The notes under the pieces were generated by a model. The model made no database searches. It was not told the origin of the DNA and worked only from the letters and a program-made list of their open reading frames with translations. A stretch of DNA of 64,000 nucleotides from Escherichia coli (lineage in GTDB: Bacteria > Pseudomonadota > Gammaproteobacteria > Enterobacterales > Enterobacteriaceae): NCBI RefSeq assembly GCF_030013595.1, contig NZ_CP122768.1; one strand, 5' to 3'. The translations under genes were made by a program, and so were the position numbers. Within the stretch, counting starts at the first letter, position 1. Each line of letters opens with the position of its first letter. Positions 1 through 15,891 of the stretch are shown piece after piece.

Positions 1-125
1 AGCGTATCGTGGATAACCATAACGGGATGCTGGAGCTTGGCACCAGCGAGCGGGGCGGGCTTTCCATTCGCGCCTGGCTGCCAGTGCCGGTAACGCGGGC
101 GCAGGGTGCGACAAAAGAAGGGTAA
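1..125 (+). CDS. envZ: sensor histidine kinase EnvZ, C-terminal fragment (gene starts upstream of window)
   Basis: Frame-3 translation ends ...GTSERGGLSIRAWLPVPVTRAQGATKEG*, recognised as the EnvZ C-terminus; convergent with pckA as expected for E. coli. Confidence 0.85.
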   Translation, partial: RIVDNHNGMLELGTSERGGLSIRAWLPVPVTRAQGATKEG

Positions 126-134
126 AATAAATAT

Positions 135-158
135 CCTCCGGCATAGCCGGAGGTTTTT
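135..158 (+). terminator. Rho-independent terminator-like hairpin just after the envZ stop (may be host or IS200 right-end hairpin)
   Basis: 8-bp stem cctccggc/gccggagg with 3-nt loop followed by TTTTT. Confidence 0.6.
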
Positions 159-234
159 CAAATGCGCCTGTAAGGCTCTGTTACCAGCCGCGCCCTAACA
201 GGCGCATACGATCTGACATTTGCATTCAACTTCG

Positions 235-693
235 TTACTTACGGCCCGTAAACGGGCTGCCCGGATATGGAATCGATAACTGCTCCCCCATTTTATCCTC
301 TTCAAGCTGGTGCTTTATGTAGTCCTGTATCTTCGCCGTGTTCTTACCCACCGTATCGACATAGTACCCTCGGCACCAGAACTCCCTGTTTCTGTATTTG
401 AATTTCAAATCCCCAAACTGCTCGTAAAGCATCAGACTGCTTTTCCCTTTCAGATATCCCATAAAGCCGGATACGCTCATTTTGGGTGGGATTTCCACAA
501 GCATATGGATATGATCTGCGCAGCACTCTGCTTCCAGAATCCGTACGCTTTTCCACTCACACAGCTTTCTCAAAATACTGCCTATCGCCCTACGCTTCTC
601 TCCGTAAAACGCCAGTCTTCGGTATTTCGGCGCAAAAACTATGTGATATTTACAGTTCCAGCGGGTGTGCGCTAAGCTCTTTTCGTCCCCCAT
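235..693 (-). CDS. tnpA: IS200 transposase TnpA (Y1/HUH transposase), 152 aa
   Basis: Translation MGDEKSLAHTRWNCKYHIVFAPKYRR... with HUH motif (HIH in ADHIHMLVEIPP) and C-terminal tyrosines (RGYYVDTVG); ORF track extends 17 codons upstream but the ATG at 691..693 gives the canonical 152-aa protein. Confidence 0.92.
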   Translation of the reverse strand: MGDEKSLAHTRWNCKYHIVFAPKYRRLAFYGEKRRAIGSILRKLCEWKSVRILEAECCADHIHMLVEIPPKMSVSGFMGYLKGKSSLMLYEQFGDLKFKYRNREFWCRGYYVDTVGKNTAKIQDYIKHQLEEDKMGEQLSIPYPGSPFTGRK

Positions 694-839
694 TGGGACC
701 CCCTTTTGATTTCTTGTTTGACACTTGCAGTTGCCAGACCGCAAGGTGTTTTAACAAATCAAAAGGGGTTTTAATAACTGGCTCAAAGCTGAAAGCTTTC
801 CGGAACCCCCAGCCTAGCTGGGGGTTTTCTGTGCACAAT

Positions 840-869
840 AAAACGGGAGGCGAAGGTGCCTCCCGTTTT
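840..869 (-). terminator. pckA Rho-independent terminator
   Basis: 8-bp GC stem cgggaggc/gcctcccg flanked by AAAA and TTTT, about 45 bp downstream of the pckA stop on the minus strand. Confidence 0.75.
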
Positions 870-913
870 GCTTTCTATAAGATACTGGATAGATATTCTC
901 CAGCTTCAAATCA

Positions 914-2536
914 TTACAGCTTCGGACCTGCTTCTACCAGCGCGGCACCCGCTGGGGTGTCGGTGTATTTATCGAAGTTGTCGATAAACAGTTTTGCCAG
1001 CGTTTCAGCTTTTTCCTGCCACTGTTCCGGAGAAGCGTAGGTGTTACGCGGATCGAGAATCTTCGTGTCTACGCCCGGCAGTTCGGTTGGGATCGCCAGG
1101 TTAAACATCGGCAGAGTGAAGGTTTCTGCGTTATCCAGCGAACCGTTGAGGATGGCGTCGATAATGGCGCGGGTATCTTTAATGGAGATACGTTTGCCAG
1201 TGCCGTTCCAGCCGGTGTTAACCAGATACGCCTGCGCGCCCGCCGCCTGCATACGTTTCACCAGCACTTCTGCGTATTGGGTCGGGTGCAGCGACAGGAA
1301 TGCCGCGCCGAAGCAGGCGGAGAAGGTTGGCGTCGGTTCGGTGATGCCGCGCTCTGTACCAGCCAGTTTGGCGGTGAAGCCAGAGAGGAAGTGGTACTGT
1401 GTTTGATCGGCAGTCAGACGAGAAACCGGCGGCAATACGCCGAAAGCATCTGCGGTCAGGAAGATAACTTTAGTTGCGTGGCCCGCTTTGGACACCGGCT
1501 TAACGATGTTTTCGATGTGATAGATCGGATAAGAAACGCGGGTGTTCTCGGTTTTTGAACCATCATCAAAGTCGATAGTGCCATCTTCACGCACGGTGAC
1601 GTTTTCCAGCAGCGCATCACGACGGATAGCGTTGTAGATTTCAGGTTCCGCTTCTTTCGACAGCTTGATAGTTTTTGCGTAGCAGCCGCCTTCAAAGTTA
1701 AACACACCGTCATCGTCCCAGCCGTGTTCGTCATCGCCAATCAGGCGACGTTTCGGGTCGGTGGAAAGGGTGGTTTTACCGGTGCCGGAAAGGCCGAAGA
1801 ACACCGCAACATCGCCTTTCTCGCCAACGTTGGCGGAGCAGTGCATAGAAGCGATACCTTTCAGCGGCAGCAGGTAGTTCATCATTGAGAACATCCCTTT
1901 CTTCATTTCGCCGCCGTACCAGGTGCCGCCAATCAGCTGCATGCGCTCGGTCAGGTTAAACGCCACGAAGTTTTCGGAGTTCAGACCCTGTTCTTTCCAC
2001 TGCGGGTTAGTGCACTTCGCGCCGTTCATAACGATAAAGTCTGGTTTGAAACCTGCCAGCTCTTCATCGCTCGGGCGAATAAACATGTTTTTGACAAAAT
2101 GCGCCTGCCAGGCCACTTCGGTGATGAAACGGACGGAAAGACGAGTATCCGGGTTCGCACCACAGAAAGCGTCGACAACGAACAGACGTTTGCCGGAAAG
2201 CTGTTTGGTCACCAGGCCTTTCAGATGCTGCCAGGTTTCCGGAGAGAGAGGTTTGTTGTCGTTCTTACCTTTGCCTTTGTCTGCCCACCAGAAAGTATCG
2301 CGAGTGGTATCGTCACGGACGATATACTTATCTTTTGGTGAACGACCGGTGAAGATCCCGGTATCGACGGCAACGGCACCCAGATTAGTTAACACCCCGC
2401 GCTCATAACCTGTCAGGCTCGGATCGAGCTCTTCCTGATACAGCAGGTCGTAGCTTGGGTTGTAAACGATATCATGTACGTCACTGATACCATAAGCCTC
2501 GAGTTCTTGCGGGGTCAAACCATTGTTAACGCGCAT
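914..2536 (-). CDS. pckA: phosphoenolpyruvate carboxykinase (ATP), 540 aa
   Basis: Translation [36 protein letters not shown]... with P-loop GLSGTGKTT; ORF track starts 23 codons upstream, but the ATG at 2534..2536 has a GGAG Shine-Dalgarno and gives the 540-aa protein. Confidence 0.95.
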
Positions 2537-2914
2537 TTCACTGCTCCTTAGCCAATATGTATTGCCTGAATAGTAAAGTCTTTTTGGGGGTGTTAACCGC
2601 GACAAGGCTCATAGATTTACGTATCTGGAGAAATTCATATTTGACAAAAAACTCCGTGATTCCTGTCACGAAACGGTTGCTATTATCGCAGAAATAGCAT
2701 TTTAGGTGTGGAAAATGTTCTTAAAAGGTTAAATCTTGGTTTATATGGCGGGAATATTGTGAGTGGAATCGCATTCCTGAATGAAATTGATGCAAATTCA
2801 ATCGGTAAAGTATCGATTCACCACGCTAACTTTTTTTGATTATTTTCTGAAAAAAGCAAAATACTACGGCCCGGATGCGATAATTAACCCACTTTTTGAT
2901 TCTGGATAACTAAC

Positions 2915-4639
2915 GTGGATAACGTTGAACTTTCACCCGCAACACGCTGGGGGATGATTGCTACCGGATTACTTCAGGGTCTGGTTTGCTACCTGCTGAT
3001 CGCCTGGCTTGCCGGAAAAAATCTCAGTTGGATTGTTTATGGCGTGCCTGCGACCGTCGCGTTTTCATCCGTTTTACTCTTCTCCGTGATCTCCTTTAAA
3101 CAGAAGCGCCTTTGGGGATGGCTGGCGCTGGTGTTTATTGCCACGCTGGGAATGAGCGGCTGGCTGAAGTGGCAAACTGATGGCATGAACCCCTGGAGAG
3201 CTGAAAAGGCGCTTTGGGATTTTGGTTGCTATCTGCTGCTGATGGCAATGTTGTTGCTACCGTGGATACAACAAAGCCTTCGCATCCGCAATGACAGTAA
3301 CCGCTATCGCTATTTTTACCAGTCAGTATGGCATAACGTACTTATATTACTGGTGATTTTTCTCGCCAATGGCCTGACGTGGCTGGTGCTTTTACTGTGG
3401 GGCGAGTTGTTTAAACTTGTTGGCATCACGTTTTTCAAAACGCTCTTTTTTGCAACTGACTGGTTTATTTATCTCACGTTAGGTCTGGTTACCGCGCTGG
3501 CGGTGATCCTCGCGCGAACACAGTCACGTTTAATCGACTCTATTCAAAAGTTGTTAACGTTAATCGCTACGGGGTTGCTGCCGTTAGTATCATTGCTAAC
3601 CCTGATGTTTATCATCACCCTGCCGTTTACGGGCCTGAGCGCGATTTCTCGCCACATCTCCGCCGCTGGGTTGCTGTTAACGCTGGCCTTTTTGCAATTG
3701 ATCTTAATGGCTATTGTCCGCGATCCGCAAAAATCGTCACTTCCCTGGACGGGGCCGTTGCGTTGCCTGATTAAAACCGCTCTGCTGGCTGCTCCGCTGT
3801 ATGTGTTCGTCGCCGCCTGGGCGTTATGGCTGCGGGTCGCTCAGTACGGCTGGACTGTCGACCGCTTGCAGGGCGCGCTGGCGGTGCTGGTGTTACTGGT
3901 ATGGTCGCTGGGGTATTTTGTCAGTATCGTCTGGCGTAAAGGGCAAAACCCCCTTGTTCTTCAGGGCAAAGTGAACCTTGCGGTTTCGTTATTGGTGTTG
4001 GTAATACTGGTGCTTCTTAATTCTCCGGTGCTGGACAGTATGCGCATTAGCGTGAACAGTCATATGGCGCGTTATCAGAGCGGCAAAAACACGCCAGACC
4101 AGGTAAGTCTCTATATGCTCGAACAGAGCGGTCGCTATGGACGTGCGGCGCTTGAGTCGCTGAAAAGCGATGCCGGGTTTATGAAAGACCCGAAACGCGC
4201 GCGGGATCTGTTGATGGCGTTAGATGGAGAGCAACATCTTCAGCAACAGATATCGGAAAAAGTATTAGCCGAAAATGTGTTAATTGCCCCTGGTTCTGGT
4301 AAACCGGATGCGACATTCTGGTCGGCCTTAATCCAGGATCGCTATAACGTGATGACCTGTATTGAAAAAGACGCCTGCGTCCTGGTCGAGCAAGATCTGA
4401 ATAGTGATGGCAGGGCAGAGCGGATCCTCTTTGCCTTTGATGATGAAAGATACATTGTCTATGGCTTTGATCCTGACAAGAAAGAATGGCAAGAGCTTAC
4501 GATGAGTTTACTTCCGCGTGATATAACGAAAGAAAAATTACTCACAGCTGCGAAGGATGGAAAACTGGGAACGAAGCCTAAAGCGTGGCGCGATCTTGTA
4601 GTGGATGGTGAAAGGCTGGATGTGAATCTGAATGAGTGA
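2915..4639 (+). CDS. yhgE: inner-membrane protein YhgE, 574 aa, GTG start
   Basis: Multi-pass hydrophobic N-terminal two-thirds; position divergent from pckA as in E. coli; GTG at 2915. Confidence 0.85.
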
Positions 4640-4670
4640 CAAAGCGCATCAGGTGTATTAGTCGTAAAAT

Positions 4671-4692
4671 CCGGCAGAGCCCTCTCTGCCGG
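4671..4692. terminator. bidirectional hairpin between convergent yhgE and hslO
   Basis: 9-bp stem ccggcagag/ctctgccgg with 4-nt loop. Confidence 0.5.
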
Positions 4693-4701
4693 ACATACTC
4701 A

Positions 4702-5586
4702 TTAATGAACTTGCGGATCTGCCGGAGACGCGTTGTTGCGGATTTCAGCAATATCCATCGCATTGAACAGATAGTGGTTACCGCAGTAATCGCAATGCAT
4801 GTCAATTTCGCCATCTTCCGCCAGGATGCTATCGACTTCTTCATCCGGCAGCGTTTTTAGCGCGTCGGCGCAACGTTCACGCGAGCAGGTGCATTTGAAC
4901 TCCACATCCTGCGGATCGTAAACCGTCACCTCTTCTTCGTGATACAAACGCCACAACACTTCGTTTGCCGGTAAGGTCAACAGTTCTTCGGTTTTGATGG
5001 TTTCGGTTAGCGTCGCCAGGTGGTCAAAGTCGTCCTGCTGGGCATTTTGCGCAGGCATTACCTGCAACAACATACCGCCTGCAGCCGGTTTGCCGTCTAC
5101 GTCGCCGGTGCGAATAAAAAGGCGCGTCGGCAGCTGTTCAGAACGCATAAAGTAATCTTCCAGGCAGGCCGCCAGAGTATCACCTTCCAGACCCACCACG
5201 CCCTGATAGCGTTCACCTTCGCTCGGGGTGATGGTGATCACCACGTAACCATTGCCGACCAGCGTTTTCAGGTCGGCATTTTCTGGAATTTCTCCCTGCA
5301 CGCGCGCTACACCGCGCATCTGCTGGTTGTTGTTACCGTTAATAACCGCCAGATTCATCGGACCGTCGCCTTGCAGCTGTACGGTGATATCACCATCAAA
5401 CTTCAGCGTAGCGGTTAACAGGCTGGTCGCAACCAGCAGTTCTGCCAGCACGTTTTTAACGGGCTGCGGATAATCGTGATTCTCAAGGATCTGTTGCAGG
5501 GTTTCCGAAACGGTTACCAGTTCGCCGCGCACGGCAAAGTTTTCAAACAGATAGCGATGTAATTGGTCATGTTGCGGCATAATCAT
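4702..5586 (-). CDS. hslO: redox-regulated chaperone Hsp33
   Basis: Translation [24 protein letters not shown]... with C-terminal zinc-binding cysteines CTCSRERC...CDYC; the start could instead be the third codon (5580). Confidence 0.93.
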
Positions 5587-5604
5587 CTCTCTTGCAGGTG
5601 ACAG

Positions 5605-6006
5605 TTATTCACTGTCGCCGTGTTTAAATCGTAACAGGTCGCGGCGCTCTTTTTTGTCCGGGCGTCGGTCCGGGTGCGGCATGGTTAAGGCATTAAGTTT
5701 ACGTGCCAGCGCCATTTTTTCGCGTTTCTCTACACTTTCCGCAGTCTCTTCATACAGCAAGGCTGCCTCGCTGGCGGGGCGACGCTGTTCAGTAATCGCC
5801 TTTACAATCACCGTGCGTTCGTCATTTCCCTGGCGCAGAGTGAGCGTGGCATTCAGCTCGACGATTTTGCTCGGCTTGCTGCGCTGCCCGTTGTAATGCA
5901 CCTTACCGCCTTCAATCATTTCACGGGCCAGCGCGCGGGTTTTATAAAAACGGGCAGCCCATAGCCATTTATCCAGTCGAACCTCAACAGCAGGTTTTTC
6001 TTTCAT
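5605..6006 (-). CDS. hslR: ribosome-associated heat-shock protein Hsp15
   Basis: 133-aa basic protein MKEKPAVEVRLDKWLWAARFYKTRALA... (S4-like RNA-binding domain), immediately upstream of hslO. Confidence 0.92.
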   Translation of the reverse strand: MKEKPAVEVRLDKWLWAARFYKTRALAREMIEGGKVHYNGQRSKPSKIVELNATLTLRQGNDERTVIVKAITEQRRPASEAALLYEETAESVEKREKMALARKLNALTMPHPDRRPDKKERRDLLRFKHGDSE

Positions 6007-13923: not shown

Positions 13924-14347
13924 CTGGTGGTTCGTCGCATCACCCCGCCTCCGCCAGCTTTGCTGGGCAGTCTGGTTGCTGGTGTTAGTTACGCTCATTT
14001 TTCTGTCATCGACACACCAGGAAGAGAGCGACGCATTAATTCGACTACGGGCGAGTCATCACCAGCAGTGGGCCGCACTGTATCGCCTGGTAGACACCAC
14101 TCCCTTCAGCGAGGAAAAAACGCTGCCCTTTTCGCCACTGGATTTTCAGTTATCCGGCACGCAACTGGTTTACTGGCATCCATCCGCGCAGGGAGGTGAG
14201 TTGGCGTTGAAAACGCTGTGGGAAGCAGTGCCATCGGCATTTACACGGCTGGCAGAGCGCAACGTCAGCGTGAGCCGTTTTTCGTTAAGCGTGGAAGGTG
14301 ATGACCTTTTGTTCACGCTACAACTGGAGACGCCGCATGAGGGTTAA
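13907..14347 (+). CDS. hofO: HofO (PilO-like), 146 aa
   Basis: Overlaps hofN by 17 nt; N-terminal transmembrane segment. Confidence 0.85.
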   Translation: MDMLFDWWFVASPRLRQLCWAVWLLVLVTLIFLSSTHQEESDALIRLRASHHQQWAALYRLVDTTPFSEEKTLPFSPLDFQLSGTQLVYWHPSAQGGELALKTLWEAVPSAFTRLAERNVSVSRFSLSVEGDDLLFTLQLETPHEG

Positions 14348-14741
14348 ACGCTGGTTGTTGGCAGGTATTGCATTGTGCCTTTTAACCGGTATGCGTGACC
14401 CTTTTAAACCGCCGGAAGATCTATGCCGGATTAGCGAACTTAGCCAGTGGCGCTATCAGGGGATAGTAGGGCGAGGCGAGCGCATCATCGGTGTAATAAA
14501 AGACGGGCAAAAGAAATGGCGACGGGTGCAGCAAAACGATGTGCTGGAAAACGGTTGGACAATTTTACAGCTGACGCCAGACGCACTAACGCTGGGAACC
14601 GGGACAAACTGCGAACCGCCACACTGGTTGTGGCAACGGCAAGGAGATACAAATGAAGCAATGGATAGCCGCACTACTGTTGATGCTTATACCCGGCGTA
14701 CAGGCGGCAAAGCCGCAAAAAGTGACGCTGATGGTGGATGA
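14337..14741 (+). CDS. hofP: HofP (PilP-like lipoprotein), 134 aa
   Basis: Start MRVKRWLLAGIALCLLTG (signal/lipobox-like); ORF track starts 13 codons earlier. Confidence 0.8.
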   Translation: MRVKRWLLAGIALCLLTGMRDPFKPPEDLCRISELSQWRYQGIVGRGERIIGVIKDGQKKWRRVQQNDVLENGWTILQLTPDALTLGTGTNCEPPHWLWQRQGDTNEAMDSRTTVDAYTRRTGGKAAKSDADGG

Positions 14742-15891
14742 CGTTCCGGTAGCTCAGGTGTTGCAGGCGCTGGCTGAACAGGAGAAGTTGAACCTGGTCG
14801 TGTCGCCAGACGTCAGCGGTACGGTGTCGTTACATCTAACAGATGTTCCCTGGAAGCAGGCACTACAAACTGTAGTAAAAAGCGCCGGACTGATAACGCG
14901 GCAGGAAGGCAACATTCTCTCGGTGCATTCCGTTGCCTGGCAGAATGACAATATCGCCCGTCAGGAGGCGGAGCAGGCGCGGGCGCAGGCAAATCTGCCG
15001 CTGGAAAATCGCAATATTACTCTGCAATACGCCGACGCCGGAGAGCTGGCGAAAGCGGGGGAGAAGCTACTGAGTGCCAAAGGGAGTATGACCGTCGATA
15101 AACGCACCAATCGCCTTTTGCTGCGAGATAACAAAACGGCGTTAAGCGCGCTTGAACAGTGGGTAGCGCAAATGGATCTGCCGGTCGGGCAGGTTGAGCT
15201 GTCGGCGCATATTGTCACCATTAATGAAAAAAGTTTGCGTGAGTTAGGCGTGAAATGGACGTTGGCTGATGCGCAACAAGCTGGTGGCGTTGGGCAAGTC
15301 ACCACGCTTGGCAGCGACCTCTCCGTAGCGACGGCGACAACGCATGTCGGTTTTAACATTGGACGCATCAACGGACGTTTACTGGATCTTGAGCTTTCCG
15401 CGCTCGAACAAAAACAGCAGCTGGATATTATCGCCAGTCCGCGTCTGCTGGCCTCACATCTACAGCCTGCCAGCATTAAACAGGGGAGCGAAATTCCATA
15501 TCAGGTTTCCAGCGGGGAAAGTGGCGCGACGTCGGTGGAATTTAAAGAGGCCGTCCTGGGGATGGAGGTCACGCCCACGGTGTTACAAAAAGGTCGCATC
15601 CGGCTGAAATTACACATCAGCCAGAACGTTCCGGGGCAGGTGCTACAGCAGGCCGATGGCGAAGTGCTGGCGATTGATAAGCAGGAGATCGAAACGCAGG
15701 TCGAGGTCAAAAGCGGAGAAACGTTGGCGCTGGGTGGCATTTTTACCCGTAAAAATAAATCGGGGCAGGATAGCGTACCGTTGCTTGGCGACATTCCCTG
15801 GTTCGGGCAATTATTTCGTCATGACGGAAAAGAAGATGAACGACGCGAGTTAGTGGTGTTTATCACGCCACGACTGGTTTCCAGTGAGTAA
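14653..15891 (+). CDS. hofQ: HofQ secretin (PilQ/ComE-like outer-membrane channel), 412 aa
   Basis: Signal peptide MKQWIAALLLMLIPGVQA and secretin C-terminal domain (...LGGIFTRKNKSGQDSVPLLGDIPWFGQLFR...). Confidence 0.9.
   Translation: MKQWIAALLLMLIPGVQAAKPQKVTLMVDDVPVAQVLQALAEQEKLNLVVSPDVSGTVSLHLTDVPWKQALQTVVKSAGLITRQEGNILSVHSVAWQNDNIARQEAEQARAQANLPLENRNITLQYADAGELAKAGEKLLSAKGSMTVDKRTNRLLLRDNKTALSALEQWVAQMDLPVGQVELSAHIVTINEKSLRELGVKWTLADAQQAGGVGQVTTLGSDLSVATATTHVGFNIGRINGRLLDLELSALEQKQQLDIIASPRLLASHLQPASIKQGSEIPYQVSSGESGATSVEFKEAVLGMEVTPTVLQKGRIRLKLHISQNVPGQVLQQADGEVLAIDKQEIETQVEVKSGETLALGGIFTRKNKSGQDSVPLLGDIPWFGQLFRHDGKEDERRELVVFITPRLVSSE

Follow-up and report, generated by a model that had tools for sequence, protein, structure and literature searches.

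No autonomous bacterial insertion sequence is smaller than IS200, which the literature describes as essentially immobile or dormant (PMC4513863, PMC12594629). The left-end (LE) hairpin of Salmonella IS200 is a bidirectional terminator that shields the transposase gene tnpA from incoming transcription (PMC4513863, PMC5435999), stopping about 85% of incoming transcripts, and tnpA translation is blocked by a stem-loop in the 5′ untranslated region (5′UTR) together with the antisense sRNA art200 (PMC4513863, PMC5435999, PMC2515195). The homologous elements IS608 of Helicobacter pylori and ISDra2 of Deinococcus radiodurans also carry tnpB and insert at fixed words, TTAC and TTGAT, with no hairpin required at the target (PMC5934647). 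For IS608, which moves by peel-and-paste, a tetranucleotide located 5′ of the LE hairpin selects the target by base pairing with it (PMC5027513, PMC5934647).

The window analyzed here, a 64,000-nucleotide stretch of Escherichia coli DNA, carries an element of this group between envZ and pckA (Table 1). Like IS200 of Salmonella enterica and E. coli, it has a single tnpA gene encoding 152 amino acids, a length of approximately 710 bp, an LE terminator hairpin at nucleotides 12 to 34, a 5′UTR stem-loop hiding the Shine-Dalgarno sequence, and a full-length match to STnc490, with neither inverted repeats nor target duplication. Its length of 712 bp compares with 707 bp quoted for Salmonella IS200 (PMC4513863), and it differs from other E. 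coli IS200 copies only in its location. IS1541 of Yersinia pestis and Y. pseudotuberculosis shares the organization, the 19-nt LE hairpin, and the position after a hairpin and T-run. IS1541 (IS1541A/B) is about 87% identical at the nucleotide level, has the LE terminus TGTGCCCAG where the window copy has TGTGCACAG, and reaches much higher copy numbers. With IS608 and ISDra2, the element has in common a homologous TnpA, in which the HUH motif, the tyrosine, and the glutamine align, and subterminal hairpins on one strand. At the position of the IS608 guide sequence, 5′ of the hairpin, it has an A-rich tetranucleotide, but IS200 copies, unlike IS608 and ISDra2, are found at T-runs that follow hairpins. 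The REP-associated tyrosine transposases (RAYT, or TnpA-REP, such as E. coli YafM) also have the Y1/HUH fold and act on hairpin DNA but occur as single copies bordered by REP sequences and do not move as a unit.

We conclude with high confidence that positions 126 to 837 of the window are a complete, intact IS200-group insertion sequence (the E. coli variant, IS200C-like), located on the minus strand, that landed after this lineage split from its closest sequenced relatives. The element itself is already known as IS200; the insertion site is previously unrecorded.

Table 1. Features at the envZ-pckA junction (window coordinates)
Feature	Position	Strand	Remarks
envZ 3′ end	1..125	+	Ends in TAA (123..125); matches envZ of NZ_CM149870.1 base for base through the stop
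IS200-group element, 712 bp	126..837 (or 127..838)	-	LE at high coordinate, RE at low coordinate
RE subterminal hairpin, CCTCCGGC-TAT-GCCGGAGG	135..153	- (tnpA strand)	DNA fold -10.0 kcal/mol, z -3.5
tnpA, intact, 152 aa, Y1/HUH	235..693	-	H61/H63, catalytic Y125, Q129
Antisense sRNA art200, ~90 nt, expected position	685..774	+	Coordinates placed by homology
tnpA 5′UTR stem-loop burying the Shine-Dalgarno sequence AAGGGGGU	700..768	-	RNA fold and Rfam alignment
Rfam RF01405 (STnc490) match	703..826	-	146.4 bits, E 1.3e-31, gathering score 56, model 1-124 of 124
LE subterminal hairpin, AACCCCCAGC-TAG-GCTGGGGGTT	804..826	-	DNA fold -11.7 kcal/mol, z -2.6
Native bidirectional envZ/pckA terminator, AAAACGGGAGGC-GAAG-GTGCCTCCCGTTTT	839..870	both	Unchanged in the empty site
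pckA	914..2536	-	Stop codon at 914..916; upstream of tnpA, in the same orientation

Empty site, exact ends, and age of the insertion

Aligned to the whole window over 63,165 bases, the pig isolate HCP5S3_I2 (NZ_CM149870.1) shows 15 substitutions and a single gap (99.975% identity), and positions 870 to 6000 of the window are 100% identical both to this strain and to a second pig isolate, LCP30S3_I5. In HCP5S3_I2, envZ and pckA are separated by 76 bp, versus 788 bp (positions 126 to 913) in the window. Compared base by base with the empty site, the filled site is longer by exactly 712 bases, which lie between ...GAAGGGTAA and ATAAAACGGGAGG.... There was no target duplication, and the sole repeat at the junction was a 2-nt "AA" ambiguity.

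The ends were delimited by comparing the window copy with 10 further copies of IS200, each from a different E. coli locus. Across these 11 copies, the conserved block corresponded to positions 126 to 838 of the window, and the sequences outside it were unrelated. Ends at 125 and 836 were ruled out because base 125 varies among the copies. We prefer 126 to 837 over 127 to 838 because the LE hairpin then lies at nucleotides 12 to 34, as published for IS200 (PMC4513863). The original prediction had placed IS200 at 126 to 839, which came within 1 to 2 bp of the true element but missed its exact end (837 or 838). It had also stated that the ends could not be fixed from the sequence alone; comparison with the empty site and with the other IS200 copies fixed them to ±1 bp. 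Its figure of 788 bp between the two stop codons was correct. The possibility it raised that a spacer of about 790 bp is ancestral in E. coli can be answered in the negative, given the short spacer of the sister strain and the survey of complete genomes described below.

In the window, as well as at tesB and yciN, the RE of the element begins 0 to 2 nt past the host stop codon. At the yebQ-htpX locus of E. coli GMF065, the annotated yebQ coding sequence extends a few bases into the IS200 RE, and the element appears to supply the yebQ stop codon (from ATAAAT).

Of 5,426 complete E. coli genomes, 2,641 contained IS200-like DNA, at up to 35 places in each, but a match covering the filled envZ-pckA site was found in none of the 5,426. 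Likewise, a 31-mer across the left junction was not found in the metagenome contig collection. Copies 100% identical over 710 bp occur at other sites in at least 40 E. coli genomes, confirming the expected nucleotide similarity to IS200, and NCBI labels close relatives of the element IS200C. HCP5S3_I2 itself has 13 places matching IS200. One of these, between yqjG and yhaH, is identical to the window copy over all 713 bases compared and is a possible donor; a donor was thus available within the lineage. Taken together, an identical donor and a filled site facing an empty one at a distance of 15 substitutions and one gap over 63 kb provide clean evidence for recent movement of IS200 in E. coli. 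The earlier view that the element is accessory DNA marking this strain holds, in that no other E. coli genome checked was filled, including the near-identical sister. As a strain marker, the copy could be scored by PCR across the envZ-pckA spacer (788 bp versus 76 bp).

A different history would have the insertion ancestral to the clade, making the copy old and not newly arrived, with IS200 lost from the sister strains through precise excision. Members of the IS200/IS605 family do excise precisely and reseal the donor (PMC5027513), and the empty site in NZ_CM149870.1 is seamless. Nevertheless, we regard this history as very unlikely. The site is empty in every complete genome surveyed, the two closest strains included, the window copy shows zero differences from the copy resident in the sister strain, and a single gain is simpler than repeated losses. 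Less likely again is an assembly artefact, in which the assembler placed a multicopy 712-bp repeat into the wrong gap. IS200 is indeed multicopy in related strains, as the 13 matching places in HCP5S3_I2 indicate, and many draft-assembly contigs break at IS200 copies. However, the two junctions match the empty site base for base, and the position of the element, in the correct orientation after a terminator T-run, reproduces the target at 10 of the 10 other E. coli copies compared. Such a match is not expected of a random misjoin.

Transposase and structured ends

The 152-amino-acid product of the minus-strand open reading frame scored 144.4 bits against the NCBIfam model transpos_IS200 (NF033573; cutoff, 55 bits) and matched Pfam Y1_Tnp (PF01797) with an E value of 9.1e-37 over model positions 2 to 121 of 121. 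Among proteins of solved structure, its nearest relatives are transposases of the IS200/IS605 family, including TnpA of IS608 (3e-19) and of ISDra2 (5e-16). The tnpA DNA has the same sequence as a copy annotated WP_000502112.1 at another locus in the comparison set (L010). It is the only open reading frame of the 712-bp element, and tnpB is absent.

The HUH motif, H61-I-H63, sits within ADHIHMLVEIPP. In an alignment to IS608 TnpA (2a6m), Y125 and Q129 of the window protein pair with Y127 and Q131. Y127 is the catalytic residue of IS608 TnpA (PMC3597680), and a Y125F construct of IS200 TnpA is labeled catalytically dead (PMC4513863). Y125 lies within QDYIKHQ, while the tyrosines of RGYYVDTVG pair with a noncatalytic cysteine and phenylalanine of IS608 TnpA. 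The original prediction of an IS200 Y1 transposase with an HIH motif thus agrees with the motif found and with the NCBIfam, Pfam, and Rfam scores, but the C-terminal tyrosines that it pointed to, in RGYYVDTVG, are not the catalytic ones, since the IS608 alignment and the published mutant (PMC4513863) both identify Y125 instead. That tnpA is instead a domesticated RAYT and not part of a mobile IS200 is an extremely remote prospect: although the Y1/HUH fold is common to both and NCBIfam REP_Tyr_transpos (NF047646) gave a weak match (30 bits, E 4e-07), this score is well under its cutoff of 80, the gene is bordered by IS200 ends and host terminator and not by REP arrays, and it occurs at up to 35 places per genome, at sites that vary, and is missing from this locus in the sister strain.

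On the tnpA-sense strand, the LE terminus reads TGTGCACAGAAAA. The two termini, TGTGCACAG... and ...GGATATTTAT(T), are unrelated, and terminal inverted repeats are absent. GAAAA precedes both the LE and the RE hairpin. On our reading of the sequence, the 8-bp stems of the two hairpins show two compensated base-pair differences, C·G to T·A and A·T to G·C, as expected if one protein recognizes both hairpins. Both hairpins and the 5′UTR stem-loop fold significantly better than shuffled sequence; the RNA fold of positions 680 to 798 reached -43.8 kcal/mol (z -4.7). The RF01405 match takes in the LE terminator hairpin as well as the 5′UTR stem-loop. A promoter scan of positions 1 to 1100 returned no sigma-70-like site, in agreement with the undefined, weak tnpA promoter reported for IS200 (PMC4513863).

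After the RE hairpin, a T-rich 3′ tail, ATATTTAT(T) on the tnpA strand, closes the element. This hairpin was invariant in 10 of the 10 other IS200 copies compared and was scored as terminator-like on both strands in a terminator scan. On the plus strand, just downstream of envZ, it reads CCTCCGGCATAGCCGGAGG-TTTTT and resembles an intrinsic terminator. The hairpin at 135 to 158 is nonetheless not the native envZ terminator, since it falls within the 712-bp insert and does not vary among the other copies. The native terminator folds at -14.9 and -13.8 kcal/mol on its two strands (z -6.3 and -7.0) and was found by the terminator scan. Of the two intact flanking terminators proposed earlier, then, the one at 840 to 869 is native and is the sole terminator of the ancestral spacer, while the one at 135 to 158 belongs to the insertion sequence. 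The GC hairpin noted at 806 to 824 as typical of the IS200 left end is real, with a stem slightly longer than first drawn.

Two Rfam matches call for comment. RF01405, named STnc490, matches the tnpA-sense strand, whereas the defining papers describe STnc490/art200 as antisense to tnpA (PMC2515195, PMC4513863). The Rfam model may represent the opposite strand or may in effect be the 5′ tnpA RNA. Separately, the 3′ end of the Yersinia sRNA family Ysr202 gave a partial match at positions 125 to 158 on the plus strand (28.5 bits, E 1e-05, gathering score 315). This hints that in Yersinia a transcript ends at the RE hairpin of IS1541, which would fit a terminator role for that hairpin toward incoming transcription. 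Membership in Ysr202 or BASRCI337 was rejected; both scores were far under the gathering scores, and the matches were partial, to terminator-type hairpins only.

Proposed insertion route and consequences for the neighboring genes

By analogy with IS608 and ISDra2, TnpA would excise the tnpA-sense strand as a circle and insert it into single-stranded DNA without duplicating the target. The contrast of filled and empty sites in near-identical strains lends this route indirect support. At this locus, LE would have been joined directly 3′ of the pckA-side T-run of the shared envZ/pckA terminator, and RE placed 0 to 1 nt past the envZ stop codon. The flank 5′ of LE, CCTCCCGTTTTAT/T, is the T-run of that terminator read in the pckA direction, and the tetranucleotide 5′ of the LE hairpin is A-rich (AAAA).

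With this arrangement, pckA would retain its own terminator, and envZ transcripts would run into the RE hairpin followed by TTTTT, which may take over as a replacement terminator. The tnpA gene would stand behind two terminators in series, that of pckA and its own in LE, and its ribosome-binding site would be hidden by the 5′UTR stem-loop, the known reason for the near silence of IS200. The insertion is probably near-neutral because no gene is broken, and the envZ reading frame is unaltered. Little effect on envZ or pckA and very low tnpA expression are to be expected from the layout of the sequence. The proposal of a neutral-site insertion between convergent envZ and pckA is likewise supported, no reading frame having been altered.

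The orientation of the copy relative to replication was assessed by GC skew. The plus strand of the window had a positive skew in 8 of 8 bins of 8 kb. The tnpA-sense strand here is accordingly the C-rich strand (skew, -0.045), corresponding to the leading-strand template. Among the matches listed from the hairpin scan described below (L014 to L133), the tnpA-sense strand was G-rich in 62 of 76 loci of at least 4 kb, a proportion that may be inflated by the coding-strand skew of a co-oriented upstream gene. The window copy has the minority orientation, as in 14 of these 76 loci. The majority fits the preference for the lagging-strand template described for the family, and the window copy runs against that preference. 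Judged by the gene orientations of K-12, about 7 of the 11 E. coli copies would be co-oriented and 3 head-on; this count was not relied on.

Terminator-like hairpins next to IS200-group elements

In all 11 E. coli copies, LE directly follows a hairpin and T-run, and the 5′ flank has the form TTTT-N-T (11/11). When one genome per species was scanned for the 19-nt LE hairpin, at least 124 matches in at least 120 loci were obtained (L014 to L133). These came from Yersinia pestis, Vibrio, Brenneria, Edwardsiella, Pluralibacter, Budvicia, and Dickeya, as well as from Oxalobacter, Mailhella, Desulfovibrio, several Bacillota, and a few metagenome-assembled genomes (MAGs) of other phyla.

Among the loci listed (L005 to L013 and L014 to L133), a strict terminator-like hairpin with a T tail was present at the junction of 89 of 109 nonredundant IS200-type LE flanks (82%), compared with 117 of 5,000 random positions (2.3%) and 240 of 3,000 T-rich positions (8%). 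The mean fold energy of the 45-nt flank was -19.4 kcal/mol, versus -8.1 kcal/mol at random positions. A first terminator detector had under-counted, at 71 of 109, because stems ran through A-T pairs into the T-run; the figure of 89 was obtained once trimming of the outer pairs was allowed, and most of the remaining 20 flanks are imperfect hairpins by eye. Positions -19 to -13 were T-rich across the 109 copies among the matches listed. The spacing between hairpin and junction was tight, peaking at 16 to 18 nt before the C-run of the LE hairpin (48 of the 71 first-detector sites among the matches listed).

An association of this kind is not new, as a preprint has reported statistical enrichment of terminator-like sequences upstream of IS200/IS605 elements (10.1101/2025.07.22.666184). 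A search of the openly readable literature for an explicit description of terminator targeting by IS200 or IS1541 turned up only that preprint's statistical note. The terminator adjacency was observed and is compatible both with direct targeting and with selection against other insertions. We propose only tentatively, giving the idea slightly less than an even chance, that IS200-group elements are site-specific for intrinsic terminators and do not insert nearly at random. In such targeting, the A-rich sequence 5′ of the LE hairpin might recognize the T-run by base pairing, in the way that the IS608 guide recognizes TTAC, and the terminator, a hairpin with a T-rich tail, might mimic the element's own RE.

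If terminator targeting is true, each new copy would be harmless and insulated from host transcription. This would explain how an element called immobile keeps many identical copies, and the envZ-pckA copy, whose site is empty in a strain of 99.975% identity, would be a fresh E. coli example. Across Proteobacteria, Bacillota, and Desulfovibrionaceae, terminator adjacency offers a simple explanation for copies that are tolerated and transcriptionally silent.

Several loci of Yersinia pestis NCTC5923 (L108, L109, L111, and L125) are IS1541 tandems, in which the LE of one copy is joined directly to the RE tail of another. The junctions read ...CCGGAGGATATTTAT(T)T/GTGCCCAG, with a difference of one T between cases. 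These tandems suggest that the RE hairpin and its T-rich tail themselves resemble, or serve as, a target, and they fit the idea that a terminator mimics RE.

The hairpin scan also picked up a different repeated element in Ruminococcus and Eubacteriales MAGs (L040, L043, and L096 to L106). It carries the exact 19-nt hairpin within the flanks AATAAGCAT-hairpin-TATTTCTTTAACGGG..., and the loop at this element end is TAG in some copies and CTA in others.

Two further features lie away from the insertion. Just past the point corresponding to the right end of the window, the gsp type II secretion cluster of HCP5S3_I2 is truncated, with a partial gspM, and adjoins an IS3-family transposase (L004, positions 14197 to 15001). 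Within the window, chiA, which encodes a bifunctional chitinase/lysozyme, contains two 108-bp direct repeats (60604 to 60711 and 60907 to 61014) that are 83% identical and are probably repeated domain modules.
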